From: a virus
Taxonomy: Duplodnaviria > Heunggongvirae > Uroviricota > Caudoviricetes
Length of the DNA: 64,000 bases
Direction: 5' to 3' (one strand)
Virus record (IMG/VR): IMGVR_UViG_3300029305_004380
Coordinates: 2,042-66,041 of that record
Shown: positions 6,149 to 57,230 of the stretch, piece after piece
Position numbering within the stretch: the first letter of the stretch is position 1
Layout: each line of letters begins with the position of its first letter
Notes under the pieces: model-generated
Database searches by the model: none
The model's input: only the letters and a program-made list of their open reading frames with translations
Told to the model about the DNA's origin: nothing
Made by a program: the position numbers and the translations under genes

Positions 6149-6853
6149 TTATCCTCCAACGTTATTTTCAGCCATATCTTCTAAAATCATTTTAGCAAAT
6201 TCTTCATGCTGTTTTATAGTTAACATTTTGTTACATGTGTTTGTTCGTCCACAATGTTTATACCAATTAATCATGGTACCTGATAGTTTATGAAGAATAT
6301 ACCACTCATCATTATTATACCAACCTTTAAAGTCATCTGTTTCATACCAAGATTCATTCATAAGAACTTCTGAAACATCTCCATATATTCTTACAAACTC
6401 ATCTCTATCTAAACCATATTGAGGAAGTGTTTCGAATGGACTTTCAGAATTAGCTGTTCTAAGAAGCACATTATATCGTTTTTTAAAATCTTCAAAAGTT
6501 TTCAATTTATCTTTATATTGATGTTCAATAGCTGTTACTACAGACATTTCTAAATCATTAGCAATACTTGTTAACGTTATTGCAGCAATGTACATATTAT
6601 CTACAAATTTCCAAAGGTCTGAATCTTTACACGATGTCCAACCATACATACCGATATATTTCTTTTTACATATAATCTGCTTTAAAACATTTTCGGCTTC
6701 ATTAAAACTTTCATATATTGTAGCATCTCCCAAATTCACAGGAAATTTAATATGTTGAACTTTAAATTCTTTTTCAGATTTAGCTCCACTTCTTATTTCA
6801 TATCCGTATACATTTACGAACTCAGTGTCATTTATTGCAATCACATATGACAT
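6149..6853 (-). CDS. hypothetical protein (234 aa)
   Basis: ORF track. Confidence 0.55.
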   Translation of the reverse strand: MSYVIAINDTEFVNVYGYEIRSGAKSEKEFKVQHIKFPVNLGDATIYESFNEAENVLKQIICKKKYIGMYGWTSCKDSDLWKFVDNMYIAAITLTSIANDLEMSVVTAIEHQYKDKLKTFEDFKKRYNVLLRTANSESPFETLPQYGLDRDEFVRIYGDVSEVLMNESWYETDDFKGWYNNDEWYILHKLSGTMINWYKHCGRTNTCNKMLTIKQHEEFAKMILEDMAENNVGG

Positions 6854-7070
6854 CGTATTCTTTACCTCCTATAATTTTTTTAATAAACCATCTTTCAGGA
6901 CCAGGATTAAATCCAATAATGTATTCTTCATCATTCATATAAACTCTCTTTTTATATTCAAAAGTTAAAGCATTGCTATTATGAAAAATATCTCCAACAT
7001 TTCTAAATACCCAAGGAAGTGGTTGATGATAATTATTAGTCAATTCATTTGCAAATATAATGTATCTCAT
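6828..7070 (-). CDS. hypothetical protein (80 aa)
   Basis: ORF track. Confidence 0.45.
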   Translation of the reverse strand: MRYIIFANELTNNYHQPLPWVFRNVGDIFHNSNALTFEYKKRVYMNDEEYIIGFNPGPERWFIKKIIGGKEYDVICDCNK

Positions 7071-7084
7071 TTTTTGACCTCCAA

Positions 7085-7267
7085 TTATTTCTTAGACACC
7101 CATGTTTCAGAGTCTAATAAGATTACATTTTGTACTATTAACTCATCATTTTCAGAAATAATTACTAGATTTCCATCTGTATAATACCAATGGGTAACGT
7201 TGTCAAAAATATCTTTATGAATTTCACATTCAGAATAATAAGTAATTTTTAAAGTCATTTTTACCAC
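7085..7267 (-). CDS. hypothetical protein (60 aa)
   Basis: ORF track. Confidence 0.4.
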   Translation of the reverse strand: MVKMTLKITYYSECEIHKDIFDNVTHWYYTDGNLVIISENDELIVQNVILLDSETWVSKK

Positions 7268-9020: not shown

Positions 9021-9251
9021 TTAAATATGTTCTATAGAAGAATTATCTTTAAAAAAATCAACCAATATATTTCTTACATATAAATCTTTTTTGTAATATG
9101 AATCATATCCTTTTTCTTTAGCCTTTTTATTTTTATGTACATAATATTCATTCCATACTTTATCTAACGCTTCTTTTTTAGAATTTGCTTTTACTATATA
9201 TTTATCATTATCACCACAAGGAACTATACATTCTACCAAATAAATACTCAC
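9021..9251 (-). CDS. hypothetical protein (76 aa)
   Basis: ORF track. Confidence 0.45.
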   Translation of the reverse strand: MSIYLVECIVPCGDNDKYIVKANSKKEALDKVWNEYYVHKNKKAKEKGYDSYYKKDLYVRNILVDFFKDNSSIEHI

Positions 9252-9266
9252 TCATATTCACTCCTA

Positions 9267-9488
9267 ACTAATCTATAAAATAAACAGTTTTACCTTTTTC
9301 ATATGCTAATGCTATATTTTTAACTAGTGTTTCAGCTTCTTTAGATGAATTAAATGAACCTATAATGGCTCTATTTGAATTATAGTCACTAAATGCTCTA
9401 ACATCTACATGATTTTCATTTTCCTCAATTGTAATAGAAAATTATCATAATTTATGTCTTTTCCATATTTTAAACTTATTACTCTCAT
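9267..9488 (-). pseudogene. small gene interrupted by an apparent -1 frameshift (27-codon start frame, then about 50 codons in the -1 frame)
   Basis: The ATG at 9488 overlaps the stop of gene 9488..9976 (TAATG). That frame stops after MRVISLKYGKDINYDNFLLQLRKMKIM. The -1 frame then continues with no start codon as ...ENENHVDVRAFSDYNSNRAIIGSFNSSKEAETLVKNIALAYEKGKTVYFID to a stop at 9267. Protein-like sequence persists across the break. Confidence 0.3.
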
Positions 9489-11271: not shown

Positions 11272-12525
11272 TCACTCCGATGACTTAAAATTATATACAG
11301 GCTTAATAAGCTTTATAATCTCTACTGTATCTTCAATATTATTTACAATATCATTAATATTCTTATATGCTTGAGGAGATTCATCGAGAGTACCTTCATT
11401 AATACATGTAGAATAAATACCTGTCATAGATTCTGCAAAATCAGAAAGACTAATAGTTTCTTTAGCTTTACCTCTACTCATTAATCTACCAGCACCATGA
11501 GGAGCTGAATTATTGTAATCCTCGTTTCCTTTACCTTTACAAATAAGAACTCCATCTCTCATATTAATAGGAATAACTAACATTTGTCCTTCATAAGCAG
11601 CGACCGCACCTTTTCTAATTATGTTATCATCTCCAATATAATTATGAATCGTATCAAACCATTCGGTCTTAATATTATATTTCCCTTTTTGTTTAATTCT
11701 TAACTTTCCACTAGTAGATAATTGAACTTGACAATCATTGAAATAATTCTTTATAAGTTCTTCAGCGATTGTAAATCTATTCAGTGCAGCGTATTTCTGA
11801 CAAATTCTCATATCATGTAAATATTTATCTTTATCTTCACCAATAAGATAAAGTAAATTTTTAGGAATCTTATCTAACTTTGACTTATAATTATTTATGG
11901 CTTCTTGAATATCAGATTCCCTTCCAGATGCTTTCATTTCTGCTATTAAGGAATTTATATTATTCTTATCTTCTTCCTTTCCAGCTTTATTTTGATAATA
12001 CTTACATACGTCTAATCCTAAATGTCTAGAACCAGTATGAATCATAAGATATTTGTTTCCTTCAAAATCTTCATCAATTTCACAAAAATGATTCCCCGAA
12101 CCAAGCGAGCCGATAGCTCTTAATACTTTATCATATTGATGTTTTACCACATCTTTATAACAATACATATTTTCAAGTTCGTCAAATTTCTTTTTCTGTT
12201 TTGAATTAACTTCAAATCCGAAAGCAACATTTTCACGAAGTATTTTATCAAATCTCTTATAATCTATATCAACATTTCCTAATGGAATTGTTAGTACACC
12301 ACAACCAATATCGACTCCAACTAAATTAGGAACTACTTTATCTCCTAAATTAGCTGTAAATCCTATAACACATCCTGCTCCAGCGTGACAATCAGGTTGA
12401 ATTCTTATTTTACAACCTTCAACAAAAGGCTGATTTAATAATTGTATTATCTGACATATACACTCATCTTCTATAACATCTGTAAATACTTTAGCAGTAC
12501 CATATTTTCCTTTAAGTTCTAACAT
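11272..12525 (-). CDS. rtcB: RtcB-family RNA 3'-phosphate/5'-OH ligase (417 aa after start trimming)
   Basis: RtcB signatures QPDCHAGAGCVIG, VGVDIGCGV and GSGNHFCEID. The start is reassigned to the ATG at 12525 (MLELKGK...), which has a GGAGG ribosome-binding site and overlaps the stop of the upstream gene. The ORF-track N-terminus at 12570 is a read-through artefact. Confidence 0.85.
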   Translation of the reverse strand: MLELKGKYGTAKVFTDVIEDECICQIIQLLNQPFVEGCKIRIQPDCHAGAGCVIGFTANLGDKVVPNLVGVDIGCGVLTIPLGNVDIDYKRFDKILRENVAFGFEVNSKQKKKFDELENMYCYKDVVKHQYDKVLRAIGSLGSGNHFCEIDEDFEGNKYLMIHTGSRHLGLDVCKYYQNKAGKEEDKNNINSLIAEMKASGRESDIQEAINNYKSKLDKIPKNLLYLIGEDKDKYLHDMRICQKYAALNRFTIAEELIKNYFNDCQVQLSTSGKLRIKQKGKYNIKTEWFDTIHNYIGDDNIIRKGAVAAYEGQMLVIPINMRDGVLICKGKGNEDYNNSAPHGAGRLMSRGKAKETISLSDFAESMTGIYSTCINEGTLDESPQAYKNINDIVNNIEDTVEIIKLIKPVYNFKSSE

Positions 12526-12526
12526 T

Positions 12527-12838
12527 TTATTCCTCCACTTTTGTAGGTTTATAAAGAGTAGCATCTTCAAGTTCTTCTAAATCGTAAATAATGCTATTAA
12601 GTTTATCTATTACAAGTTCATTAACTTTAAATCCATTTTTATCAATAATACGTTTATCATAACTTATATGATGAATAGCTTCATCTATTCGGCTATATGC
12701 TTCTTTTATTAACCCTTTATATTTTTTATTTTCATTTTCATCTCTTGGAGTTATTTCATAAGCTTTCATAATGTTAATCCTCTCTATAATAAATTCTATA
12801 ATTTTTAAATATAACTCTATTAATAAGTTTAGTCCCAA
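12527..12838 (-). CDS. hypothetical protein (103 aa)
   Basis: ORF track; its stop abuts the rtcB start. Confidence 0.5.
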   Translation of the reverse strand: MGLNLLIELYLKIIEFIIERINIMKAYEITPRDENENKKYKGLIKEAYSRIDEAIHHISYDKRIIDKNGFKVNELVIDKLNSIIYDLEELEDATLYKPTKVEE

Positions 12839-14815: not shown

Positions 14816-15137
14816 TTAATAATATTTAAACTATACACTATATTTTTAATAACTTATCATATAAACAAAACAAACAAATAACTAAAAATCTAATTTATAC
14901 TCATTTTTACTCGGCACAATACATTTACATTCACTTCATAATAAACTTTAAAGAGGTAATCTATATCAAATAGTTTAAATATTATGATTATATTTTATTA
15001 TTAATTTTATCTATTAATAACTGTTTACAAATATTTAATGCAATCACCCATTCAGAATTTATATATTCATCCGATTCAATATAATCATTTATTAATCTTA
15101 TAATTTCTTGATAAGTCATTTCATATCACATCTTTCA

Positions 15138-15659
15138 TCATAATTGAGGTAACATTTCCAATAATTCTTCAATCTTATTTTTAGTATTATCAGATAATAT
15201 CATTTTATCTTTATTATTATCATACCAATGCTTTGCAGTACTTTTAGGATTATTATATTTAAATGATGACCAATCACATAACATTTCTATAATACAATTT
15301 AAAGGCATATCTAATATTTTTTGTTCACCTGAATCTTTTTGTAAAATCCAATATTGCCAATGATGATCATTACATTTTTGATGATGGTTCCAAGCTTCAT
15401 CATATAATGCTTCATTATCGGCACCTGCTTTAGATGGATAAAAATGATGCAAATATGGATAAAATTCTACATCATCATACTTAGATGCATCATGATTATT
15501 TATTTTATGTTCTAATTCATGCTCATTAAAATCAAACATTGTTAAAAGATCATCTTTTATAGATTCATAAGATTTCTTAACGCCATCTATATGATTTTCT
15601 AAATATTTATAATATTCTTCAGATCTATCAGATACTCTTTCAGTTAATATTTTCAACAT
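15138..15659 (-). CDS. HD-like metal-dependent hydrolase family protein, paralogue A (173 aa)
   Basis: Shares the motifs HD-x-SK, LHH, HHW(Q/E)YW and (L/I)CDW with 18677..19219. Confidence 0.5.
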   Translation of the reverse strand: MLKILTERVSDRSEEYYKYLENHIDGVKKSYESIKDDLLTMFDFNEHELEHKINNHDASKYDDVEFYPYLHHFYPSKAGADNEALYDEAWNHHQKCNDHHWQYWILQKDSGEQKILDMPLNCIIEMLCDWSSFKYNNPKSTAKHWYDNNKDKMILSDNTKNKIEELLEMLPQL

Positions 15660-15674
15660 TTATTTTCTCCTTTA

Positions 15675-15716
15675 AAAAATAAACATGAGACATTTTAATC
15701 ATGTCTCATGTTTAAT
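15675..15716 (-). terminator. intrinsic terminator, 13 bp stem (AAACATGAGACAT / ATGTCTCATGTTT)
   Basis: Perfect inverted repeat flanked by A and T runs. It sits between the HU gene and the next gene. Confidence 0.6.
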
Positions 15717-15720
15717 AAAA

Positions 15721-15996
15721 TTATTCATTTATAAGTTTTCTTACAGTAGGTGAAAATCTAAATTTAGGATTTTTCTTAGCAGGACTTACTTTTTCTTCAC
15801 CTGTTTTTGGGTTTCTTACTACTCTTTCAGGTTGATCTATTGCTTCAAATTTTCCAAAACTATAAATTTCTACCTTTTCACCATTCTTTAAATTTTCATT
15901 TACTAATTGTACAAATGTATCAATAACCCCTGTAACAGTGTTAATTGATTCTCCTGTAGATATTGCAATCTTTTCGATTAATTCTTGTTTTTTCAT
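15721..15996 (-). CDS. HU/IHF-family histone-like DNA-binding protein (91 aa after start trimming)
   Basis: MKKQELIEKIA...FGKFE...RNPKTGEE is a classic HU signature. A GGAG ribosome-binding site precedes the ATG at 15996. Confidence 0.8.
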   Translation of the reverse strand: MKKQELIEKIAISTGESINTVTGVIDTFVQLVNENLKNGEKVEIYSFGKFEAIDQPERVVRNPKTGEEKVSPAKKNPKFRFSPTVRKLINE

Positions 15997-16022
15997 AATA
16001 TTTCTCCTTTTATTTAATAATA

Positions 16023-16325
16023 TCACTGCTTATTATATTCATCTAATGCTTTATAAATAGCAGTTTCAAACTTAACACGTGTATCAGCTGTAATAGGATG
16101 ATATATATCAAAAAATCCAGAAACCGGATTATTTTTTTCATCCAATGCAGTGATTTTTTGTGATGGAAATGCAATAAACTTTTTCTTATTTCCATTTTCT
16201 ATTTTTTCAATAACCCTAATATTATGCAAAACCATTTCATTGTCTATTAATACTGAAACTAATGCTTTAACAGGTTTAGTAGGATCATTATAAACTTTTT
16301 TTACTTGAACGCTTGTAATTATCAT
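16023..16325 (-). CDS. spoVG: SpoVG-like protein (100 aa)
   Basis: The pattern VxVL(I)DNEMVLHNIRVIE...FIAFPS...DIYHPIT(A)DTR matches the SpoVG family consensus. Confidence 0.7.
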   Translation of the reverse strand: MIITSVQVKKVYNDPTKPVKALVSVLIDNEMVLHNIRVIEKIENGNKKKFIAFPSQKITALDEKNNPVSGFFDIYHPITADTRVKFETAIYKALDEYNKQ

Positions 16326-16388
16326 GTCTTTTTATCTCCTTAATTATTTTTATATTTATATTTTATTATTTTAAATGTAAAAACGTAT

Positions 16389-17097: not shown

Positions 17098-18258
17098 TTA
17101 AATTAATTTATCTACATGTTGAAATTCATCTAATGTAAATTCATAAACTTTATTTTGAGTATGATTTTGAAATACAACATCTTTATCACTTATTATATTA
17201 TAATCGTTTGTAAATGTGTTCATTATTTCTTTAGAAATCCATTCTATAAATTTAACCGGAACACCTTGAGCTAAACATTGAATTGTAGGAATTTTACATT
17301 CATTAGGATAAAATATAAAATCATCCGGATAGCCCATTATTCTAGCATATTCTCTTATATATAAATCTCTATTTTCTACAGGATGAATAAATTGAGCTAA
17401 ACTAGTCATTGAAGGAGCCACTCCGTCAAAATCAAGTCTATATGAAGATTTATCCCATAATCTTTCTCCATTATTTTTCTTTTCAATAAAAGATTTTACT
17501 TGTTTTTTATGTTCATTCGGAATTTTTTCAATGTCTAGATTATTTAAATTGTTGTATAATCCACACATTAAAGATTCATTATGTTTTACATATCTATAAA
17601 ATTCTTCCATATTTTTAATAGCTCTGTTATTATCAAATTCCATATTGGGTGTGTCAGGAGTTAAACCTTCAAATATTTCTTTTATTGTTGTTTTATTTTG
17701 TTTAACAAATTTTATTTCAGGTATTTTTTCATATTTATTTTTATTCCAACCTACAATCATAGTTCTTAATCTTCTCATACTTACACCATGATTTCCAGCC
17801 ATATCTCGTATGATTGTAAATTTATACTTTTCACCTAATATATTCACCATATCTTTTAAAATAGGTAATCCTAAAGTCACGACTGTTGGTGCATTTTCTA
17901 TTAAAAATGTATCAGGATTTAAATGATTTATAATATCAAATACTTCATAAAATCTATTATTTACTTTATTATCTACTTTTGCATTTTTATTTATAGAACT
18001 TAATCCAGAGCATGGATTATTTGAATATAATAAGTTATAATGTTTTTCTTTTAAAGTGTCTAAGAATGCATTTTGAGACCACTCTGATGGTCTCTTAATA
18101 TTTATATTAGGATAATTCTTACAAAAATGATACGCATTAGTATCTGTCATATCTTCAGTCATTTCTAAAACAGTATCTATTTTCCATCCTGTATTTAAAT
18201 GTCCTATGGTCTGACTCCCAGAAAATATATATGCACCTATAGCTGATAATTCATTCAT
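17098..18258 (-). CDS. divergent C5-cytosine methyltransferase-fold protein (386 aa)
   Basis: C5-MTase motif order is recognisable: motif I-like IFSGSQTIG (glycines replaced), motif II LEMTED, motif IV NPCSGLS (PCQ becomes PCS), motif VI FLIENAPTV (ENV), motif VIII RRLRTMIVGW and C-terminal motif X-like QGVPVKFI. Confidence 0.7.
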   Translation of the reverse strand: MNELSAIGAYIFSGSQTIGHLNTGWKIDTVLEMTEDMTDTNAYHFCKNYPNINIKRPSEWSQNAFLDTLKEKHYNLLYSNNPCSGLSSINKNAKVDNKVNNRFYEVFDIINHLNPDTFLIENAPTVVTLGLPILKDMVNILGEKYKFTIIRDMAGNHGVSMRRLRTMIVGWNKNKYEKIPEIKFVKQNKTTIKEIFEGLTPDTPNMEFDNNRAIKNMEEFYRYVKHNESLMCGLYNNLNNLDIEKIPNEHKKQVKSFIEKKNNGERLWDKSSYRLDFDGVAPSMTSLAQFIHPVENRDLYIREYARIMGYPDDFIFYPNECKIPTIQCLAQGVPVKFIEWISKEIMNTFTNDYNIISDKDVVFQNHTQNKVYEFTLDEFQHVDKLI

Positions 18259-18282
18259 ATTTTATATTACTCCTTTTTAATT

Positions 18283-18657
18283 TCAATCTAACTCTATTCT
18301 ACCTATAAGATTTGGATGAATAATCATTTCCTTCATATAAGGAGTTAGATCGTAAAAATCATCTTCTCTTAATTTTTTAAATGGACTACACTCCATGCCT
18401 GCAAATAAAAATACACAAATTTCACTGTTATTATCACCTATAGGTTTTAATTTAATATCAGGCTTATTAGATCTACATGTAAAAATTAATCTATATTTTC
18501 TAAACCATTTGGTCATAAATTTAGGACCTTTAATAGTCATAAGATGTTTAATATTATTCTCTTTAGCAGTCCAATCACAAGTATGTATTATGTAATCTTC
18601 ATATATTTTTATTTCGTGTCCATTTGCACCCATGTGAGTATTTATTATTTTATCCAT
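18283..18657 (-). CDS. hypothetical protein (124 aa)
   Basis: ORF track. Confidence 0.5.
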   Translation of the reverse strand: MDKIINTHMGANGHEIKIYEDYIIHTCDWTAKENNIKHLMTIKGPKFMTKWFRKYRLIFTCRSNKPDIKLKPIGDNNSEICVFLFAGMECSPFKKLREDDFYDLTPYMKEMIIHPNLIGRIELD

Positions 18658-18676: not shown

Positions 18677-19219
18677 TCATTTTTCATATGTTTTTTCATA
18701 TTTTTTAATAATATCTTTTAACTTAAATCTACCAGAGCTATAATCATGTAATACATTAAATAAAAATGTATAAGTATCTAAATGTATTTTTATTTTACCA
18801 CTATTGTATAATCTATTAAAAGTTTTAAAAGGAATATCACAGGTCCAATTATCTTTATTATATGCTTTTCCAGCTCCTATCCAATCACATATCATTTCTT
18901 TAACATATTTAATTGGCATTTTTAATGCTTCTCCACCTGAAGAAAGATTATCAATCCAATATTCCCAATGATGTGGATTTCTTCCTCTATGATGTAACCA
19001 TGCGTATGAATATCCTTTTTCATCTTTTTCATTATCAATTGGACTTCTATCACCTGTATAATATTTAGCAGAATTAAAAAATTCAGAAAAACTAAATTTA
19101 GACCAATCATGCATAAATCCTCTAAAAGGAATTCCAGCTTCAACAGATGCTAAAAACACATAATATTTATGTCTGTTTATTATAGCAAAATGTTTTAATA
19201 ATTTTTTATAATATTTCAT
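18677..19219 (-). CDS. HD-like metal-dependent hydrolase family protein, paralogue B (180 aa)
   Basis: H-x25-HD-x-SK, WLHH, HHWEYW and ICDW motifs shared with 15138..15659. Confidence 0.5.
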   Translation of the reverse strand: MKYYKKLLKHFAIINRHKYYVFLASVEAGIPFRGFMHDWSKFSFSEFFNSAKYYTGDRSPIDNEKDEKGYSYAWLHHRGRNPHHWEYWIDNLSSGGEALKMPIKYVKEMICDWIGAGKAYNKDNWTCDIPFKTFNRLYNSGKIKIHLDTYTFLFNVLHDYSSGRFKLKDIIKKYEKTYEK

Positions 19220-19814: not shown

Positions 19815-19848
19815 TTAAAAAAACTCCAAATTTTATTTGGAGTTTTTT
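19815..19848 (-). terminator. intrinsic terminator (AACTCCAAA / TTTGGAGTT) overlapping the stop of the SpoIIID-like gene
   Basis: A 9 bp stem and 5 nt loop, followed by a T7 run in the minus-strand reading. Confidence 0.6.
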
Positions 19849-20093
19849 AGTATTAAATATTTGTGTTTAGTTGCCATGCCACCACGAATATGTTTATCTT
19901 TAAAATTTGATGCAACTAATTTTCTAACTTTTTGATATAATCTTTTATCAATGTATGGTAATTTATAAAGAAAATCGTATGACAATGTAGATTTACCAAT
20001 TCCAAACACTTTAGCAGTTTTTCGTATTGTAGATTTATTATCTACGTAATAAATTGCACAAGCTTTTATTCTATTCTCAAGTTGTTCGTTCAT
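19833..20093 (-). CDS. spoIIID: SpoIIID-like HTH transcriptional regulator (about 86 aa, start trimmed)
   Basis: AKVFGIGKSTLSYD...LP...KHIRGGMATKHKY matches the SpoIIID family (AKEFGVSKSTVHKD...IRHxRGGxATKxKY). A GGAG ribosome-binding site lies 9 nt upstream of the ATG at 20093. Confidence 0.7.
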   Translation of the reverse strand: MNEQLENRIKACAIYYVDNKSTIRKTAKVFGIGKSTLSYDFLYKLPYIDKRLYQKVRKLVASNFKDKHIRGGMATKHKYLILKNSK

Positions 20094-20142
20094 ATAAATC
20101 AACTCCTTTAATTATATTTTATTAAAGGAATCAATAAATATA

Positions 20143-23179: not shown

Positions 23180-24181
23180 TTACTTATTGAATTTAATAGC
23201 ATTTTCATTAAATAAAGTATTATCACATTCCACAAAATAGTCAAATAGTGGTAACGCTAACTCTCTCATTTGAGGATGAGCAGCTTTGTCACATCTTAAT
23301 TCAAAGAAATGTCCCCATTCATAATTATGAGCAGTCATTATAATTTCAGTTTTTAAACTGTTACCAAGTACACTTCTAGCTTCTTGAGGAGTAGCTCCTA
23401 ATTCTAATAACTCAAAGTATGCTTTTTCTGAAGCTTTTATTGCATCTCTCCAAACATGATACTTGTTTCTTTCAACACTTTGAAGTTCTGCTTCACCATC
23501 AAACATTAATGGGTCAATCACCGTGATATTATTATCAAATTTATCTTTAGAATAATTACAATATCTTGTAGATTCTTGAGCATATGAAGAATCCCTATGT
23601 CTAACGATTTCATGTGATACACCTCTATCACAAATAAATTTAATAGATTTCCATCCGTGCATCCATTGTTCTTCTGGAATTAATGTATTAATATCATCGA
23701 TTTTAGTCCAATTATTTCTATGTACTTTTTTAAATTTATTACCAAATAATTCATCACAATCATAATCTAAGACTATTTGCTCACATAATTCAATTAAATG
23801 TTCTTTCATATAACTATTAGTCTTATAAGCTTCTAATAAATCTAAAAGAGACCTTGCGCTAAACGACAATATATATCTTAATTTTGTTTCAAAATTACCT
23901 TCATCATTACATGAAATAATTTCTGTCGTACTAGATGTTATATATTTTTCATTACTTAATATTTTAAAAAATAAATTATTAGGAGTATTACATTGATATA
24001 CAAATATAAAATGTTCTAACATCGCCCAATGTTTTTTATCATATAAATTTTTAATCATTTTTTTATGACTTTCATCAGTTATTAAATCTTCTGATTTATA
24101 ACAAATTCTTGCAATTTTTTCAATATGTTTTTGAGGATTGTCATCATACATTTCTTTAAATGACGGCTTTATAATTTTCAT
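23180..24181 (-). CDS. thyX: flavin-dependent thymidylate synthase ThyX (333 aa)
   Basis: ThyX signature RHRDSSYAQESTRY (RHR-x6-QESTRY). A GGAG ribosome-binding site is present. Confidence 0.85.
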   Translation of the reverse strand: MKIIKPSFKEMYDDNPQKHIEKIARICYKSEDLITDESHKKMIKNLYDKKHWAMLEHFIFVYQCNTPNNLFFKILSNEKYITSSTTEIISCNDEGNFETKLRYILSFSARSLLDLLEAYKTNSYMKEHLIELCEQIVLDYDCDELFGNKFKKVHRNNWTKIDDINTLIPEEQWMHGWKSIKFICDRGVSHEIVRHRDSSYAQESTRYCNYSKDKFDNNITVIDPLMFDGEAELQSVERNKYHVWRDAIKASEKAYFELLELGATPQEARSVLGNSLKTEIIMTAHNYEWGHFFELRCDKAAHPQMRELALPLFDYFVECDNTLFNENAIKFNK

Positions 24182-27232: not shown

Positions 27233-29830
27233 TTAATTTATTTTATCGATTTTGTATATATAATTATGTTTAATTTCTTTATAAATATATTTCTCTATAA
27301 TCGGATATATATATGTTTGAATATATAATAAATACAATAATTTGTAAAGTTTTTCATCACATGCATGTTCACTATAATATCTAAATTTTGAATTTCTCAT
27401 TTCATCAATAAATATATCTTTAATTTCATCATATCTTGTATGAGCAGTCTCAAAATTATTTATTACAAAACATGTAGTTTCAATAAATGTTAAAAACCAA
27501 TTTTCATTTTTAAAATCTTTATCATCAATATAAAATTCACCGTTATTCCACACATTGTGTTTTTTAGCATATGTCTTTATTTCATCTACAATATATCCTA
27601 ATTTTTTAATATCTAAAGCTTCTCGTTCATTTATTTCTTCAATTGATGTATCACTATCAAATGATTCTTCATAAAAAGATTTATCAACTTCATCATATGT
27701 TAATTCAGGATGAGTTACTAAATCACTTAATTTTGCAAATGTTCTTTTTGTAGATGGTCCACATACACATCTGATATGAGTGGCATAATATAAGTCAATG
27801 TTTAATTTATTAGGCTTTATTTTATCATAATTGTCATTAAATAAATTAGATAGTTTTAAATACTCACCGGCCATTAAATATTTAGCGAACTGTTTAGCTC
27901 GTCTGTCAGTAAAATTTCTAACATTATTAATTATTTTCCAATGTGAAATAAGTTCTTTCCAATTATATTTAGAAATATCATCTACATACTGTGTAATTAA
28001 TTGTTCTTCATAAAATTCTCTATCTGTTAAAAACTTATAAGCAATTTTAAAATATTTAATTAAATAACTATAATCTAATGATGAATAATATCCAGTTGTG
28101 CTATCTCTTGAAGAACCAAATTGACCAATCTTTTTAGTATCTATAAAATACTTCATCCATATAGAATTCATATATTCAAGATTAATAAATTCAGAAGTCT
28201 CTACTTCAAAATTAGCCTTATTTTTTCTTTCATTCCACCAATCGTCTTTTTTAACAGCTATAAAAATTCTATCATTTTCAATAAGATTAATTTTATAAAG
28301 TCCAGAAGATACTTTACAATCTCTTGTAGTATTCAATTCTCCTCGAGCTCTATTGGCACTATATGTCTTACCATTACTTTCTCGAATAGATTGAATAACT
28401 AAAATAGTATCTCCAACATGATTATATTCATTTATATTTTCTACAAAGTCGGCAAAATTTCCATATCTATTATCATCTAACCAAGCATTTGCATAATTAT
28501 GAATAATATATTTAGATGTAAATCTAATATCTACTTTTTCAGGTACAGTAAGTATTTCTCTATGTTCAATTAGTCCTTGAACTACACTTAAAGCAAAATA
28601 TCTCGAAACGGCTTCACCAATAGGAGTGTTAGGAGTTTTATCATTTTCATCTATTTGTTTTACTTCAGGTTTATATATTACATCTTCTATGAAAGATAAT
28701 TTATGCTCATCCATATCAGTTTTGTCATTATCCCATTCTTCTTCAAGCCAACCCACATATAAATTTTCACCATTTCTAACAACAAATCCAATTTTATTTC
28801 CATGCAACATATCGTATGACTCTAAAATATCATCATCACTGTTGTAAAAATAATTTTTATTTGTTTTAGAACATCTAAAAAATGATATACATTTTAGTTG
28901 AGGACAAAACATTTCCATAACGGAATCCGAATATTTAAGTACTTCTTCTAAAAGTTTATAATTGCCTTCAATATCATCAGTATATATACTCATGGTTTTA
29001 GCTAAATCTTCATTAAGATATAACATTTTTTGATTAAGCACTATAGGTGTTTCTTCTGATTCTTTTTTACCTTCTCTTAATTGAATTAATTCTACAGTTT
29101 CACCTGCAAAACATCTAATAGAATAAATGTTTGTTTTCAACATAAAGATTTGCTGTTTTAATGCTTTTAATTTTTCATTAAATTCAGCCATCTTTTCATC
29201 AAGTTCAGCTATCATTGCTTGTTTCTTAGCCTCAAGTAAATTCATCTTTTCATCTATTTCTTTTTGAATTTTGGCTAATTCATCAGTTTTAGCATTTTTT
29301 ACATTTTCTATTTGTGATTTTAAATTATCCATTAATGTTGTTACTTTCTTTTGCTCACTTTTAACATCATTAATAGATAAATTTGTAATTTCAGCCGGTA
29401 GTTTACTTTCGGTTGCAGGAGTATTTCCATTTATTAACATTCTCTTTACTTCATTTAATGAATACTGAGAATAATCTGTTTCAGGTATAAATTCAACAAA
29501 ATCTTCAAGAATAAATATAGATACTTTACCATAAGATACTACTACATATTTATCAATATGCATATCTACGTTCCATGTAAAATTATTTAATTTAATATAT
29601 GCATCTACAGTTTTAGCATTATCATATCTTAATATATTAACTCCATCTGGTTTAGAATTACAATACTGTTTATTTAATATATTATCAATTGCTTTTGAAA
29701 TAACTTGAGTATCTTTTTCATTCCATTTACCATAAAAATATTGCATATATTCATCGTTAAATTTTACAACATCAAAATTTTCAGATTGAATATACTCCAA
29801 ATATTCATTAAGTTTGATATTAGATTTCAT
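27233..29830 (-). CDS. large protein of unknown function with central coiled-coil (865 aa)
   Basis: ORF track. K/E/L heptad region around residues 150-230. No catalytic motif recognised. Confidence 0.6.
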   Translation of the reverse strand: MKSNIKLNEYLEYIQSENFDVVKFNDEYMQYFYGKWNEKDTQVISKAIDNILNKQYCNSKPDGVNILRYDNAKTVDAYIKLNNFTWNVDMHIDKYVVVSYGKVSIFILEDFVEFIPETDYSQYSLNEVKRMLINGNTPATESKLPAEITNLSINDVKSEQKKVTTLMDNLKSQIENVKNAKTDELAKIQKEIDEKMNLLEAKKQAMIAELDEKMAEFNEKLKALKQQIFMLKTNIYSIRCFAGETVELIQLREGKKESEETPIVLNQKMLYLNEDLAKTMSIYTDDIEGNYKLLEEVLKYSDSVMEMFCPQLKCISFFRCSKTNKNYFYNSDDDILESYDMLHGNKIGFVVRNGENLYVGWLEEEWDNDKTDMDEHKLSFIEDVIYKPEVKQIDENDKTPNTPIGEAVSRYFALSVVQGLIEHREILTVPEKVDIRFTSKYIIHNYANAWLDDNRYGNFADFVENINEYNHVGDTILVIQSIRESNGKTYSANRARGELNTTRDCKVSSGLYKINLIENDRIFIAVKKDDWWNERKNKANFEVETSEFINLEYMNSIWMKYFIDTKKIGQFGSSRDSTTGYYSSLDYSYLIKYFKIAYKFLTDREFYEEQLITQYVDDISKYNWKELISHWKIINNVRNFTDRRAKQFAKYLMAGEYLKLSNLFNDNYDKIKPNKLNIDLYYATHIRCVCGPSTKRTFAKLSDLVTHPELTYDEVDKSFYEESFDSDTSIEEINEREALDIKKLGYIVDEIKTYAKKHNVWNNGEFYIDDKDFKNENWFLTFIETTCFVINNFETAHTRYDEIKDIFIDEMRNSKFRYYSEHACDEKLYKLLYLLYIQTYIYPIIEKYIYKEIKHNYIYKIDKIN

Positions 29831-31208: not shown

Positions 31209-32786
31209 TTATTCATCAATATTATCTTCAAGATATGGATTTACTACTTCAGGAAGAGATTCCTTTTCATCATTATTAATAACTGTATTATTTTCAGATG
31301 TACTTAATACACCTAAACCTTTAAGAGGTTCTGCAACTGCTTTAACGGCCTCTGAAACTGAATCATTAAATGATTTACCATTAAGAGCATTATTAGAAAC
31401 ATCTAAATGTTTCATAAGAGTAGGAATTTGTGCAAGAGTATCAAATAATACATTGTTGCCCATACCTGTTCCTGAACCACCAATGTTTACAAATTCTGCA
31501 TTCTTTCCAACTTCAGCCATTACAGTAGCCATATTTGTTGCAATCTGTACTCTTGCTTCATTTTCAATCTTAATTTTTTCAATTTCAAAATTAACCTTAC
31601 CATTTCCTGCTCTTGCTTCAGCTAATGCTTTTTCACCTTCAGCTTCGGCAAGTTTTTTCGCTTTAATTGCTTCAGCTTCTGCAATACCTTGTTTAGTAGT
31701 AATTTCAGCTTGAGTTTCACCTTCAAGTTTTATTTTATTTGCATTAGCTTGAGCTTCTCTTTCAATTGCATTTGCTTTACCAATAGCTTCTTGCTCTAAT
31801 ACTTTAGCTCTTGCTTCTGCATTAATAGTGGAAACGTTTGCTGTTTCTTGAGCTTTAATTTCCGCTTGAACTTTTTCAGCTTCAGCTCTAGTTTTAATAA
31901 CTTCCTTTTCTTTAATTGCGGCTAGATTAGCTTGTTCTTGTCTGACAACTTCAACTTTACCTTCTTGTGCAGCAACTTCTTGCATACGAATAGTTTTCTG
32001 AAGTTCACCTGCAATTGCAGCGTCTGCATTGGCTTTATCTGTTTCCGCTTTGAATTCGGCAATTTTTAAATTATTATTTTTAGTTTTTTCAGCAATTTCA
32101 AGTTCTGTATCAAGTTCACTTTGTTTAGCTATTTTTTCTGATTCTGCATTTTGTTGTCTGATTTGCTGATCAGCCATAGCTCTTACTTGTTCAGCTTCTT
32201 TTCTCTTTTCTTCTCTATCTTTAGCAGCAATATCTTCATAATAACCATTGTTATCTGTAACTTCACCTATATTAAGTGAGATTAATTTAAGACCCATATC
32301 TTTAAGTTCATCTGCAACAGCTTCTTGCACCGTTTGTTTAAACTGTTCTTTTTTAGTAGCTACTTCTTCTGGAGTCATAGTTGCAACAGTGCCAAGTACA
32401 CATCCAGCCAATGTTCTTTTAACATCTTCTTTAATACCATCACTTTTACGTTCTTTAAAAGATACTATTGCTTTAGCAAGAACTTCAGTATCAGATGAAT
32501 CAGGTCTAATTTGAGCAGTCCAATTAATAACGATAGGTACACCTGTCTTTGTCATAATTTCATCTTTATCAGCTGTAACAGTTAACATACATAAATCGAA
32601 TGTATCTGCTCTTCTAAAAATAGGAATTACAAGTCCACCTCCAGAAACTTTATAGATAGGCTCTTTTCCGCCTGTTATTATTAATACTTTATCTACAGGC
32701 ACTGTTTTATATATTTTACAAAGTAAAATAATAAAAGCCACAATAAATAAAATTATTACCCCACCGATTATTAAATATTTTTCCAT
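31209..32786 (-). CDS. flotillin-like SPFH/band-7 protein, FloT-like (525 aa)
   Basis: N-terminal TM helix, an SPFH domain (VPVDKVLIITGG...IPIFRRADTFDL...) and a long Ala/Glu-rich coiled-coil flotillin domain. An AAGGAG ribosome-binding site is present. Local GC is visibly higher than the surrounding sequence. Confidence 0.8.
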   Translation of the reverse strand: MEKYLIIGGVIILFIVAFIILLCKIYKTVPVDKVLIITGGKEPIYKVSGGGLVIPIFRRADTFDLCMLTVTADKDEIMTKTGVPIVINWTAQIRPDSSDTEVLAKAIVSFKERKSDGIKEDVKRTLAGCVLGTVATMTPEEVATKKEQFKQTVQEAVADELKDMGLKLISLNIGEVTDNNGYYEDIAAKDREEKRKEAEQVRAMADQQIRQQNAESEKIAKQSELDTELEIAEKTKNNNLKIAEFKAETDKANADAAIAGELQKTIRMQEVAAQEGKVEVVRQEQANLAAIKEKEVIKTRAEAEKVQAEIKAQETANVSTINAEARAKVLEQEAIGKANAIEREAQANANKIKLEGETQAEITTKQGIAEAEAIKAKKLAEAEGEKALAEARAGNGKVNFEIEKIKIENEARVQIATNMATVMAEVGKNAEFVNIGGSGTGMGNNVLFDTLAQIPTLMKHLDVSNNALNGKSFNDSVSEAVKAVAEPLKGLGVLSTSENNTVINNDEKESLPEVVNPYLEDNIDE

Positions 32787-35097: not shown

Positions 35098-35186
35098 TGG
35101 TGCAAGAGAAGGGATTCGAACCCTCAATTCCTCACGGACGACGGATTTTAAGTCCGTTGCATATACCAAAATTCTGCCACTCTTGC
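35098..35186 (-). tRNA. tRNA-Leu (anticodon UAA), type II with long variable arm, CCA encoded
   Basis: Manual cloverleaf. Acceptor GCAAGAG/CTCTTGC, 3 bp D-stem, anticodon stem ACGGA/TCCGT, loop CT-TAA-AA, 15 nt variable arm, T-arm GAGGG-TTCGAAT-CCCTT, discriminator A, CCA. Length 89 nt. Confidence 0.85.
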
Positions 35187-35359: not shown

Positions 35360-35433
35360 TGGCTGGGGTAAATGGAATCGAACCAATACTCTAAGAATCA
35401 AAATCTTATGTACTACCGTTATACTATACCCCA
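35360..35433 (-). tRNA. tRNA-Gln (anticodon UUG), CCA encoded
   Basis: Manual cloverleaf. Acceptor TGGGGTA/TACCCCA, D-stem GTAT/GTAC, anticodon stem TAAGA/TCTTA, loop TT-TTG-AT, T-loop TTCGATT, discriminator G, CCA. Length 74 nt. Confidence 0.8.
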
Positions 35434-36192: not shown

Positions 36193-36735
36193 TTATTTAC
36201 CTGAATTTCCAAATCCAGTATCTCCTCGATTGGTATTCATAATTTCTTCTTTTGTCAAACCAGTTTCTTTCATATAATCTTCTAGAGATACCCATTCAAT
36301 GCTGTAAGTTTTATAAATATCTAAACTGCACGGTCTTTCTCCTTTTTCAATGGTAATATCTTTGTCTGTCACATTGTACAAAAGAGCATTGATACAACCA
36401 CGATAATTCAAATCTACATGCGCAGGTCCCACTAATAAACCTTCAAGCCATCTACCACCTCTTGTTCTACATGCAATACCAAAACCTTCAGGAATAATAG
36501 TTCCAATACCAAGTGATACTTTAGCTGAACCATGAGCTGGAATCGTTACTGTTTCATGAGCATATGCATCATATCCAATATCACCTTCTTTATTTCTCTT
36601 AGGAAGCATTAATTCACCATCTCCTGAAAAATCAAGATATGGTACCTGTATTGTATTTTCAGTACAATTCATTGTTTCCATCATATGTTCCAATGTTGTT
36701 ATCCTATTTTCTAATTGTGCTAATACTTTATTCAT
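36193..36735 (-). CDS. dUTPase-family (trimeric dUTPase/dCTP-deaminase fold) enzyme with N-terminal coiled-coil extension (180 aa)
   Basis: dUTPase motifs: IGYDAYA (motif 1), RTRGG (motif 2-like) and GPAHVDLNYRG (motif 3, D...YRG). Confidence 0.65.
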   Translation of the reverse strand: MNKVLAQLENRITTLEHMMETMNCTENTIQVPYLDFSGDGELMLPKRNKEGDIGYDAYAHETVTIPAHGSAKVSLGIGTIIPEGFGIACRTRGGRWLEGLLVGPAHVDLNYRGCINALLYNVTDKDITIEKGERPCSLDIYKTYSIEWVSLEDYMKETGLTKEEIMNTNRGDTGFGNSGK

Positions 36736-36854: not shown

Positions 36855-38135
36855 TTACACGTTTATATAATTATTTTTAGCATCTTCTAATAATTGACCA
36901 TCTCTCCAAATATTAAAACAATGATTTTCAGTGAGATCAATAATATTCTTATTTTTAAATTGTTCTCTTACTTTTCTCCAATTTATACCTACATTATCTA
37001 AACCTCTTTGATGAATCCATTTAATATATTCTATATGACCAAAATTATTTTTCATTTCCTGTTGTTGCTGAGTAAATCTTTCTTGAATACTATCAAAATT
37101 CATAGTACCCATTGCAACTGAACTGTATGTCATCCATCTAAATTCACAATTTATAAGACCTGCTTCTAATCCTCTAATAAGTAAATCTAAATCATCATGT
37201 CCATTGCCTATAAGAGTTCTATAATTTAAACCAGACTCTTTAAGTCTCTTTAAATTTAAACAAACAGTTCCTGTAGGAAGTCCTGATAATAATCTCATTG
37301 ATTTTTCTACATTTATAAAATCAGGAACCCAACTAAATCCTTGCATCATACCTGTGGTAAACATCACATTATATTTTTTAGCAACATATTCCATACCAAT
37401 CTGCCACATTGCCATAGTTTTTCCAAAGTTTTGTGTAGTAACTCCTTGAGCTTTTGGTTCACCATTTGCTCTAAACCAAGGAACCGTATGACAAAAATTA
37501 GTAATATCATCGTCACACATAAATATAAAATCATATTTCTTAGAAAAAGCATTTACAATTTGTTCTCTAGTTTTTCCAATGTCATCTATTAATTCATCAG
37601 GAAATGCTTTTATATGTATATAATCATTATATTTTATATACTCTGATGCTTCATACAGTTCTTTTTGAGATTGTCTCACAATAATATAAATTGGATATTC
37701 ATAACCAGGAACAACTATGTCTTTAATCCATTTTACAAAACCACAATTAGGTCTATTATATGATGGAATTACTATAGGGAATAATCTATCCTTTACAATA
37801 TCATACGCTGCTTCATAAAGTTTGTTACTCCAACAATCAACTGCTAATAGCTCTTCAGTTGTAACTTTCGGAGCTTTAACTCTTGGAGTTTTTTCATATT
37901 TCATTTTTTTACCTTCAATATATTGCTCTAAAGATATATTTTTTTTATTTAATTCATCTTTTAATTTTATTACCTCCTCCCAACATTTTTTACACTTTTC
38001 ATCGACACAATCATTACATTCTTTATCACAATTTATAACCGCTTCAACATATGAACTCATGTTTGAAATATTTTTAGGACATTTAAATTCATTTGCTAAA
38101 ACATTTAATATTGTGTCAGTTTTTAATTTTGCCAT
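36855..38135 (-). CDS. putative glycosyltransferase (GT-A-like) with N-terminal Cys-rich zinc-binding region (426 aa)
   Basis: PIVIPSYNRP resembles the GT2 N-terminal strand motif. An acidic DDD (FMCDDDITNF) lies about 85 residues downstream, as a DxD motif would. N-terminal CxxC-x-CxxC cluster. This is a tentative fold assignment. Confidence 0.35.
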   Translation of the reverse strand: MAKLKTDTILNVLANEFKCPKNISNMSSYVEAVINCDKECNDCVDEKCKKCWEEVIKLKDELNKKNISLEQYIEGKKMKYEKTPRVKAPKVTTEELLAVDCWSNKLYEAAYDIVKDRLFPIVIPSYNRPNCGFVKWIKDIVVPGYEYPIYIIVRQSQKELYEASEYIKYNDYIHIKAFPDELIDDIGKTREQIVNAFSKKYDFIFMCDDDITNFCHTVPWFRANGEPKAQGVTTQNFGKTMAMWQIGMEYVAKKYNVMFTTGMMQGFSWVPDFINVEKSMRLLSGLPTGTVCLNLKRLKESGLNYRTLIGNGHDDLDLLIRGLEAGLINCEFRWMTYSSVAMGTMNFDSIQERFTQQQQEMKNNFGHIEYIKWIHQRGLDNVGINWRKVREQFKNKNIIDLTENHCFNIWRDGQLLEDAKNNYINV

Positions 38136-38151: not shown

Positions 38152-38874
38152 TTAATATCCCATTTTGTCTGTTAATGTTTCATCATTTATTATCCAATCA
38201 TTAACTTCTTTTATAATAAAATTATCATTAGGCCTTGCAAACACCACATATTTAATACCTGCATTAATGATTATTTTTTTACACATTTGACACGATTCTA
38301 AATTCTCTATAATATTTCCATCAATATCACTTCCATATAAATATAAAGTAGAATCAATCATTTTTTCTCTTTCAGCATTTATAATTGCATTCATTTCACT
38401 ATGAACACTTCTACATAATTCATATCTTTCTCCTCTTGGAATATTCATTTGTTCTCTTCTACAATATCCTAAATCGATACAATTCATAGTTAATCTGGGA
38501 GAGCCATTATATCCTGTAGAAATTATAGTGTCATTTTTAACAATAACAGAACCATATTTTTTCCTTAAACAGGTAGATCTAGTAGATACTTCTTTTGCAA
38601 TATTTAAATAATATACATGCTTAGAAGGTCTTTCACATGTTTTATCATTTAATTTGTTGTATTGTTCACTGCATTTATTGCAATAATGATGTTTTTCATA
38701 TACATTCCATCCAGATTCATTATATGCACCAACTAAAAGTTTAAAATTATTTATACCTTTAAAAATCATCTTTTTATCACATATATAACATTTAAAATTT
38801 ATGCAATTTTCATTTTTATATTTACTATCTAAATATTTTTTATTCAAACTATTTATTAAATCTATATTTTTCAT
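38152..38874 (-). CDS. dCMP deaminase with N-terminal zinc-finger extension (240 aa)
   Basis: Cytidine/dCMP deaminase zinc motifs HSEMNAI (H-x-E) and SCQMCKK (PCxxC-type) with correct spacing. Confidence 0.8.
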   Translation of the reverse strand: MKNIDLINSLNKKYLDSKYKNENCINFKCYICDKKMIFKGINNFKLLVGAYNESGWNVYEKHHYCNKCSEQYNKLNDKTCERPSKHVYYLNIAKEVSTRSTCLRKKYGSVIVKNDTIISTGYNGSPRLTMNCIDLGYCRREQMNIPRGERYELCRSVHSEMNAIINAEREKMIDSTLYLYGSDIDGNIIENLESCQMCKKIIINAGIKYVVFARPNDNFIIKEVNDWIINDETLTDKMGY

Positions 38875-51372: not shown

Positions 51373-51434
51373 AATCTATTAATCTCCTTTTTAATATTAT
51401 AATTATATTTTAATTGTATCACACATACAAATAA

Positions 51435-56513: not shown

Positions 56514-57230
56514 TTAATATGCATATAATTCATACAGAAGATCTTTTATATCTTGTCGAATCAACGTGGTGCAATTATCTGTTGCTCTCATGCCTAAACA
56601 TTTATAAACAGCATTATATGTGAATTTTGTCATGCTATCCAGAATGCCTCTTTTTTCATCATCGAGTGAATTATAAAATTCATTATAAATGCTTCTTATC
56701 TTTGTAGATGGACCATCAAACTCTTTAATGTACCGCGTTGCGATAAGATATTTAACTTTATTATCAAAAATATCATCTAATAATTCTTCTAATGATATTC
56801 TTAATATAATACTGTCTGTTTCATTTAATTTATGAGAAGATGCTTTATATTCTATTTTTTGTTTTTCAGTGTTTAATGCTGAAGTATATCCTCTATCATG
56901 ACCGTTAAATATTTCAGTACTAAAATCATCAATATTTTCCATTTGTTTAGATACGTACATGCATTTTGCAAGTATTGCATTTTGTGCAACTCTTATTAAA
57001 TAAGAAAGTTCTAATTCATTTCCTCTTAGTTTATATTTATCAATCGCTTCATATATTTTAAGCCAAGCTTCTTGTTTTAAATCATCGACTTGAAAATACG
57101 GATTTGTTGCTACATATTTTAATGCTATATTATTTATAACTTGATTAAGCTTTCTATGCACCTCCTTATTATATACTCCATCTAATGTAATTAATACATT
57201 ATTTTTGTTTACTTTTGTAGTGGTTTCCAT
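56514..57230 (-). CDS. phage-encoded sigma-70-family sigma factor (238 aa)
   Basis: The region-2-like segment DDLKQEAWLKIYEAIDKYK...YLIRVAQNAI resembles sigma-70 region 2.1-2.4. Its position between the structural and replication modules is typical of a late or middle sigma factor. Confidence 0.55.
   Translation of the reverse strand: METTTKVNKNNVLITLDGVYNKEVHRKLNQVINNIALKYVATNPYFQVDDLKQEAWLKIYEAIDKYKLRGNELELSYLIRVAQNAILAKCMYVSKQMENIDDFSTEIFNGHDRGYTSALNTEKQKIEYKASSHKLNETDSIILRISLEELLDDIFDNKVKYLIATRYIKEFDGPSTKIRSIYNEFYNSLDDEKRGILDSMTKFTYNAVYKCLGMRATDNCTTLIRQDIKDLLYELYAY

Follow-up and report, generated by a model that had tools for sequence, protein, structure and literature searches.

A SpoVG-family gene and an HU-type gene form a conserved operon in a lineage of phages represented by a 64,000-nucleotide stretch of Caudoviricetes DNA (positions 2,042 to 66,041 of IMG/VR record IMGVR_UViG_3300029305_004380; this whole stretch is the window), in which every gene lies on the minus strand, as do all window features located below. 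Both protein families are already known from phages; the operon is new, as is the insertion-bearing, charge-shifted subtype of SpoVG with an altered DNA-binding doublet that it encodes. The SpoVG gene (16023..16325, 100 amino acids, long-hairpin subtype) lies upstream of the HU gene (15721..15996, 91 amino acids) in tandem, and the two are back to back as an earlier note on this DNA, made from the sequence alone, had placed them. The two products are read here, tentatively, as a co-expressed nucleic-acid-binding pair that would serve the phage's own DNA and RNA transactions, with HU as non-specific bender and SpoVG probably as its selective partner.

The product of 16023..16325 is a true SpoVG-family protein. 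Its match to PF04026 (E=2.8e-18) scores 66.2 bits against a gathering cut-off of 29.6 and covers profile positions 1-79 of 82, and PF04026 is present in 25 of 25 homologue clusters. A phmmer search of the PDB gave matches limited to the SpoVG entries 2i9x, 2i9z and 2ia9 (E=4e-10 to 2e-8). An AlphaFold2 model of the monomer, built on 23 homologues, has a predicted local distance difference test (pLDDT) score of 83 with six strands and a helix at residues 80-99, and the top ten Foldseek matches of this model in the PDB are all SpoVG chains (probability 1.00, target-normalised template modelling (TM) scores 0.63-0.81). The motif by which the gene had originally been recognised contains the expected FIAFPS, HPI and ADTR elements, but begins NIRVI and not DIRVI. 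Reading the protein as a virion component was considered and rejected, the match to phrog_7673 ("internal head protein", E=1.3e-3) and an earlier-noted similarity to a minor capsid protein of Streptococcus phage MM1 (PMC3362512) being too weak. A fold search of BFVD with the phage protein returned two viral SpoVG proteins only, and no capsid protein.

The downstream gene encodes an HU/IHF-family protein that matches the full PF00216 (Bac_DNA_binding) profile, positions 1-90 of 90 (E=1.7e-24, 86.3 bits against 22.4), so that both profile searches proposed as a check in the earlier note came out above the curated thresholds. Matches in the PDB are to HU and IHF chains, with E down to 6e-15. The program-made open reading frame (ORF) for HU opens with a GTG (position 16026). 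A start at the ATG of position 15996 is preferable, because a Shine-Dalgarno sequence, AAAGGAGAAATATT, precedes it and because the homologues all begin MKK(Q/P)EL. The arm-tip motif R61-N62-P63-x-T65-G66-E67 has K64 at its variable position in the window, and across the lineage alignment N62, P63, T65, G66 and E67 do not vary. P63 of R-N-P is the intercalating proline of the beta-arm, as known from HU/IHF-DNA structures. The proline of an "I-P-A" sequence, which is lost in some relatives, is not the intercalating residue. At arm positions in Bacillus HU numbering, R58 and R61 are kept in the window and position 55 is Gln, with relatives varying at 55 and 58. A word-indexed protein search with the HU query found two proteins only, HU diverging too fast for such a search.

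The arrangement of the two genes has the anatomy of a transcription unit. The 26-nt intercistronic spacer (15997..16022) carries the HU ribosome-binding site AAAGGAGAAATATT and no terminator or hairpin. Seven nucleotides past the HU stop begins an intrinsic-terminator-like hairpin followed by a T run (15670..15714, or 15680..15714 by narrower bounds), with a 14-bp stem, a 7-nt loop and a folding energy of -19 kcal/mol; the terminator scan gave 2 sites in the region against 0.2 expected, and 8 of 10 related loci have a hairpin of unrelated sequence at the same place downstream of HU. Upstream of SpoVG is a promoter-like element (16350..16371) that reads AAATAATAAAATATAAATATAA, a degenerate copy, with 4 mismatches, of a lineage-wide 22-nt motif, AAGAATTAAAATATAATTATAA, that includes a TATAAT box. 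Since a scan for the sigma-70 consensus gave 25 sites against 30.6 expected, not above chance in AT-rich DNA, cross-genome conservation was used for the promoter motif instead. The motif is exact upstream of SpoVG in L003/L005, L100, L101 and L102, relatives that are only 50-80% identical in protein, and differs at one position in L006, L108 and L107; the intergenic DNA around it is otherwise unalignable between relatives. In the distant relatives L110 and L111 a core, TTAAAATATAATTA, lies 39-69 nt before the SpoVG ATG. When up to 2 mismatches are allowed, the window contains 9 copies of the 17-mer core (2.5 expected), a number reached by 0 of 100 shuffles, with a perfect copy at 51397-51413. 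From these features we infer a bicistronic SpoVG-HU transcription unit with its own putative promoter and terminator.

The AAGAATTAAAATATAATTATAA motif also precedes genes other than SpoVG. Sites of the motif (core TTAAAATATAATTATAA) include 14982-14998 of the window and, in relatives, L003 9905, L100 5918, L101 5935, and L102 5923 and 7696. It could mark promoters of one temporal class, with the phage sigma-like protein described below as their possible reader.

Comparison of the pair was extended to 80 bacterial and 12 other viral SpoVGs from IMG/VR, and to a lineage alignment of 23 close relatives. HU lies directly downstream of SpoVG in 11 of 12 distinct lineage members, namely the window and ten relatives (P0014, P0024, P0015, P0016, P0005, L105, L106/L107 and the distant P0029, P0028 and P0176, whose SpoVGs are only about 45-59% identical). 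The SpoVG-HU spacers in relatives are 1-57 nt, each with a Shine-Dalgarno sequence, and the flanks of the pair change: RecA, a methylase and orf218 in most relatives, RecA and the methylase in L110, a sigma-like gene and orf217 in L111. None of the 80 bacterial loci and none of the 12 other viral loci has HU within 4 kb of spoVG, and the pairing is therefore neither an inheritance from bacteria nor general. In four relatives a Tad6-family gene is inserted directly after HU (L005 10333-10611, L100 6779-7090, L101 6686-6982, L102 6660-6953).

The earlier note had joined the pair with a SpoIIID-like gene and a phage sigma factor in one host-development and nucleoid-manipulation toolkit. The SpoIIID-like gene (19833..20102; PF12116, E=6.7e-23) is indeed found 3.5 kb upstream of SpoVG. 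Its position varies among relatives: in L003-5, L101 and L102 it is found upstream of the pair, in L099 and L100 it follows the pair, and L006 has no such gene. The pair itself is fixed, so that the conserved unit is SpoVG-HU and not SpoVG-HU-SpoIIID. A sigma-like gene also exists (56514..57230, 238 amino acids), its product matching Sigma70_r2 alone (E=5e-7, 29.8 bits), and it lies 40 kb from the pair. The link of the pair to SpoIIID and to the sigma-like gene is loose. Relatives do carry genes for Spo0A_C-only proteins, which have the DNA-binding domain and no receiver (L099/L100 9509-9958, L101 10123-10530), and together with SpoIIID in the window these indicate that the lineage collects sporulation-type regulators. 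The 258-kb relative L006 has a GGDEF diguanylate-cyclase domain protein (6391-7086) where others carry SpoIIID and also encodes a YodL-like protein and a peptide deformylase (17758-18048, 18067-18480), and L101 encodes an HPr-like protein (9075-9308). By tblastn, no homologue of the relatives' Spo0A_C, Tad6, HPr, GGDEF or YodL proteins was found in the window, SpoIIID alone being shared.

The phage SpoVG is 35-44% identical to any bacterial SpoVG and departs from these in several specific ways. A 4-residue insertion lengthens the first beta-hairpin and brings in a conserved K/R triplet (NGNKKKF versus GNSGLF), making an E-K-x-x-x-G-x-KKK hairpin, and an insertion of 8-9 residues after the P-S motif (after PSQK) lengthens another. 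The basic doublet that follows P-S has its first residue replaced by Gln (PSQK versus PSK[KR]); each of the 23 close relatives has Q56, with K57 kept, and distant relatives read P-A-N-K or P-A-K-Q, retaining one basic residue. All 80 bacterial SpoVG loci have K-[KR] at the doublet, yet the pattern by which they were retrieved admitted only [QK][KR] there. The acidic C-terminal tail is absent from the phage lineage, and the isoelectric point (pI) is 7.8-9.3 in the close relatives' SpoVG versus 4.3-6.3 across 80 of 80 bacterial SpoVGs. Site specificity in SpoVG is set by six helix residues, and the specificity-helix segment reads T-A-D-T-R-V in the phage protein versus S-D-M-R-Q-E in S. aureus, the helix Arg being retained (R83, equivalent to R69). 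The His-Pro motif, H76-P77, is unchanged across 23 of 23 lineage members; it corresponds to H62-P63 of B. subtilis SpoVG, where P63 is functionally essential according to a passage in PMC3362512 citing Matsuno and Sonenshein (1999). The doublet is K50-R51 in S. aureus and R53-R54 in B. burgdorferi, with each residue needed to bind DNA, and in S. aureus either K50A or R51A abolishes DNA binding with oligomerisation unaffected (PMC3688583).

Constraint on the lineage SpoVG is strong, as read from protein identity, synonymous sites being saturated at 25% GC and at the divergence seen here. Compared pair by pair, lineage members share on average 72% identity in SpoVG versus 50% in HU, with SpoVG the higher in 21 of 21 pairs, and this conservation is about that of RecA (72-82%) and well above that of the methylase (47-51%). 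The long-hairpin subtype is also rare and isolated: a HMMER scan of 1.84 billion representative proteins gave 335 SpoVG matches at E<=1e-3, in which the long type amounts to 4 representatives. Many library SpoVG-domain proteins (P0031-P0063) contain two tandem SpoVG domains in about 200-280 amino acids, and one library protein of 3,891 amino acids has 12 stretches matching SpoVG. The bacterial SpoVGs nearest to the phage protein (41-42%) come from metagenome-assembled genomes of uncultured low-GC "Bacilli" (L019-L027 and L067, 26-28% guanine plus cytosine (GC)), which share a helix motif with it (MFEEAI versus KFETAI) and originate from Hadza and rabbit guts, the same kind of sample as the phage contigs; these are possible donor or host lineages.

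How the pair might act can be outlined from these observations. HU-family proteins bend and wrap DNA non-specifically. One transcription unit, running from the promoter-like motif through SpoVG, the ribosome-binding-site spacer and HU to the terminator, would yield both proteins, presumably simultaneously. The phage HU would most likely serve DNA replication, recombination or a transcription switch, as TF1 does in Bacillus phage SPO1. The remodelled SpoVG would most likely be the selective or regulatory half, sharing its nucleic-acid substrate with HU; phage DNA and transcripts are candidates for this substrate, and possibly the host chromosome. The pair would thereby reprogramme gene expression and DNA transactions in infection, with any effect on host sporulation a consequence, and not simple SpoVG mimicry. 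This reading is favoured because of the fixed HU operon, which is absent from bacterial and other viral SpoVG contexts, the HU-like basicity of SpoVG, the placement among replication genes, and the loose linkage to SpoIIID. Counted on the same side are the clear boundaries of the unit, the strong constraint on SpoVG, the DNA and RNA binding and S. aureus nucleoid association known for the family, the basic charge of the close relatives' SpoVG with its K/R triplet gained in an extended hairpin, the occurrence of SpoVG among replication and transcription genes in other viral contigs, and its retention in virulent C. perfringens podoviruses of 18 kb that have little room for accessory genes.

Several observations weigh against this proposal. 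SpoIIID in the genome and Spo0A_C in relatives fit a role directed at host sporulation at least as naturally, and adjacency shows co-regulation, not cooperation on one substrate. A divergent 1.4-kb contig, L103, lacks HU downstream of SpoVG and is the single exception to the pairing. The basic charge is not universal, the SpoVGs of distant relatives having a pI of 5.9-8.2. Finally, the doublet residue equivalent to S. aureus K50 is Gln throughout the close relatives, with N-K or K-Q in the distant ones, and as this residue is alanine-sensitive in S. aureus, classical nucleic-acid binding by the phage SpoVG may be weakened.

The main rival, plausible but less likely, is a hijack of sporulation by mimicry; the explanations considered are not mutually exclusive. 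The phage SpoVG would then act on host targets together with SpoIIID, Spo0A_C and the sigma-like factor, HU being a mere neighbour with the same timing, and an infected spore-former would be kept vegetative or have its development steered. The SpoVG family does have roles in septation and sporulation (PMC10745906, PMC3362512), the SpoIIID gene of the window and the SpoIIID and Spo0A_C-only genes of relatives suit such a purpose, and spoVG is among the sporulation genes enriched in gut phages of spore-formers, for which this hypothesis has been stated (PMC10294663). The retained His-Pro motif, with its proline described as essential in the passage cited above, is also consistent with it. Recognition of the same targets is made doubtful, however, by the low identity, the changed specificity helix, the replaced essential basic residue, the two insertions and the reversed charge. 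In addition, SpoVG is not sporulation-specific, being present in Staphylococcus, Listeria and Borrelia; no close copy occurs in 185,579 GTDB species genomes, so that the gene is not a recent host capture; and mimicry accounts neither for the fixed HU operon nor for the looseness of the SpoIIID link. "Regulator of septation and sporulation", as the gene had been described at the outset, is the name of the family and not a demonstrated activity of a protein this divergent with an altered nucleic-acid-binding face.

The changed doublet could alternatively reflect a change of ligand at a phosphate-contacting site, as expected if SpoVG were chiefly an RNA-binding, CsrA/Hfq-like regulator of the translation or stability of phage or host mRNA, with HU independent or RNA-acting too. 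The SpoVGs of Listeria and Borrelia bind RNA, and the Borrelia protein has higher affinity for RNA than for DNA (PMC4959528, PMC11086051). This explanation is nonetheless rather improbable: neither an RNA target nor a conserved structured leader came to light, the Rfam matches in the window being two tRNAs only, and DNA is the likelier ligand in view of the conserved pairing with a DNA-architectural protein and the location inside a DNA-metabolism module. The same Gln at the K50-equivalent position would also suit a dominant-negative decoy, in which a phage SpoVG with one defective binding residue co-assembles with host SpoVG oligomers and inactivates them, since SpoVG is oligomeric, the S. 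aureus protein being tetramer-like, and K50A mutants multimerise yet bind no DNA (PMC3688583). The gain of a basic hairpin and of a positive overall charge speaks instead for retained or stronger nucleic-acid binding, and about 40% identity together with two beta-hairpin insertions makes mixed oligomers uncertain, so that a decoy seems very improbable.

A bolder version of the phage-serving pair, regarded as doubtful, is a dedicated two-protein chromatin or regulatory system, in which SpoVG, once an acidic bacterial regulator that acted alone and at specific sites, would have become a basic partner, perhaps contacting HU, on possibly hypermodified DNA, and the two would organise replication and the early-to-late transcription switch. 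If this were true, SpoVG would represent a new class of phage nucleoid-associated protein, and an enigmatic family would gain an architectural role. SpoVG has been studied since 1977 with no agreed mechanism, having been described as a DNA binder, an RNA binder and a septation regulator. That the lineage SpoVG is more conserved than HU, about as much as RecA, and sits in an HU operon is natural genetic evidence tying SpoVG to nucleoid or DNA architecture, in a compact case of two proteins of about 100 amino acids and one operon. The picture of phages carrying sporulation genes is also refined, as the phage spoVG copies here are not host-like and may serve phage nucleic-acid transactions. Practical impact is modest because phage and host are uncultured.

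Comparison with characterised proteins helps to define what is particular to this pair. Bacterial SpoVG (PF04026; PDB 2IA9 from B. subtilis, 2I9X and 2I9Z from S. epidermidis), which has been investigated in S. aureus, B. burgdorferi and L. monocytogenes, has the same size of about 100 amino acids, the same fold of beta-sheet and one C-terminal helix, and shares the hallmarks F-x-A-x-P-S, D-I-x-H-P-I and the helix Arg. The phage form differs in its 35-44% identity, the insertions of 4 and 8-9 residues, the change of K-R to Q-K, the missing acidic tail, a pI of about 9 versus about 5, and an operon with HU in place of the bacterial spoVG neighbourhood. The bacterial protein binds DNA site-specifically and is located on the nucleoid in S. 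aureus (PMC3688583), and the Listeria and Borrelia proteins are RNA binders (PMC4959528, PMC11086051). The B. subtilis protein holds back asymmetric septation and later favours formation of the cortex, and B. anthracis needs its SpoVG to sporulate (PMC10745906).

Among phages, a "putative SpoVG" has been annotated in phi29-like podoviruses of C. perfringens since 2012 (PMC3362512). These proteins (phiCP7R, phiZP2, phiCPV4, CPS2 and the CPQ series; phrog_27338) resemble the window protein in their SpoVG fold of about 103 amino acids and in coming from phages of a low-GC spore-former, and they include its best viral structural match (BFVD I3PV27, TM 0.73). Pairwise sequence similarity to it is nevertheless undetectable, with phrog_27338 reaching only E=0.009; the proline of the His-Pro motif is absent from the podoviral proteins (PMC3362512) and kept in this lineage; and no HU is annotated in the 18-kb podoviral genomes. 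A study of human-gut phages also counts spoVG and spoIIID as homologues of sporulation genes and proposes that the regulation of sporulation is a target of phages (PMC10294663). That set, from Schwartz et al. 2023, comprises the same families (spoVG, spoIIID, truncated spo0A and sigF/sigG-like sigmas), the truncated spo0A matching the Spo0A_C-only proteins of the relatives; it differs in that spoVG was identified by KEGG orthologue only, and the HU operon, the insertion subtype and the altered doublet are not described. In view of these reports, and of HU homologues in 127 phage records, the statement that such genes are not usually annotated in phages was too strong. On other large IMG/VR contigs, SpoVG genes of the short bacterial type lie among genes for DnaX, ThyX, sigma-like, NrdG-like and helicase proteins, which indicates that SpoVG was acquired several times by phages.

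For HU, the best matches in isolated phages include YonN of SPbeta and a protein of Geobacillus virus E3, at 44-45% identity. TF1 of SPO1 and YonN are likewise type II DNA-binding proteins of about 90 amino acids from large phages of Gram-positive hosts, which also encode their own sigma-like factor as in this window. TF1 binds and bends phage DNA, represses early promoters and supports replication, and HU proteins of the TF1 type prefer phage DNA that contains hydroxymethyluracil or is otherwise modified. These proteins differ from the window HU in not being paired with SpoVG, and a preference of the window HU for modified DNA is suggested by nothing beyond the candidate modification genes of the window.

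These genes belong to a phage with no close sequenced relative among isolates. A megablast search with 8 kb around SpoVG-HU gave no match in 50,697 phage records, whereas identical or related proteins occur on human-gut metagenome contigs of 75-258 kb, Hadza samples included. Neither a scan of the 185,579 GTDB genomes with a lineage-only SpoVG pattern nor a single-protein scan of IMG/VR returned a copy, which gives no indication of a prophage or of recent presence in a host genome. It is concluded that the source is an uncultured lineage of large, possibly jumbo-sized, gut phages of virulent type from a low-GC Firmicute, probably not a prophage.

Searches of the window proteins (GC content about 25%) against family libraries revealed a phage-type replication and nucleotide-metabolism module. 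Recombination and repair are represented by RecA, an SbcCD-like pair, an NAD-dependent ligase and a 5'-3' exonuclease (FEN), and replication by a primase-like Toprim protein, a superfamily-2 helicase and a single-stranded DNA-binding-like protein. Nucleotide metabolism and modification include a C5 methylase, ThyX, a thymidylate-synthase-like enzyme, dCMP deaminase, dUTPase and a TAGT-like glycosyltransferase; further genes encode RtcB, GroES and a MazF-domain protein.

A candidate set of DNA hypermodification and nucleotide genes (17098-18258, 23180-24181, 36193-36735, 36855-38135, 38152-38874 and 49525-50451) comprises the C5 cytosine methylase, ThyX, dUTPase, a TET-associated-type glycosyltransferase, dCMP deaminase and the thymidylate-synthase-like enzyme. 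The glycosyltransferase matches PF20691 (E=1.7e-7) and phrog_842, beta-glucosyl-HMC glucosyltransferase, and the thymidylate-synthase-like enzyme, for which the PF00303 match is partial only, is a candidate pyrimidine hydroxymethylase. Modification of the phage DNA is possible, with bearing on the substrate to which HU binds. In the relatives L003/L004 (2190-4504) ThyX contains an intein that includes an HNH endonuclease, and its length is 650 amino acids versus 330 elsewhere.

Several large ORFs of the window have no match in any family library, and those at 27233-29830, 57445-60555 and 61746-63971 (865, 1036 and 741 amino acids) match no Pfam or PHROG family whatever; some orphan ORFs of this kind in large phages encode split or divergent polymerases, or subunits of an RNA polymerase. 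A 433-residue protein (41858-43159) begins with about 120 residues of PemK/MazF-type toxin domain (E=3e-20), its remaining 300 or so residues having no family match, and such a fusion is unusual inside a phage replication module. Two paralogous DUF5662 genes (15138-15659 and 18677-19219; E=1.6e-31 and 3.7e-35) bracket the methylase-orf218-SpoVG-HU block, and both copies are kept in most relatives. Also encoded are an SPFH/Band-7 protein of 525 amino acids (31209-32786), the RtcB RNA ligase (11272-12570), a cREC_REC domain protein, a DUF488 protein, and tRNA-Leu(UAA) and tRNA-Gln(UUG) (35098-35186 and 35360-35433), which together hint at a theme of RNA repair and anti-defence.

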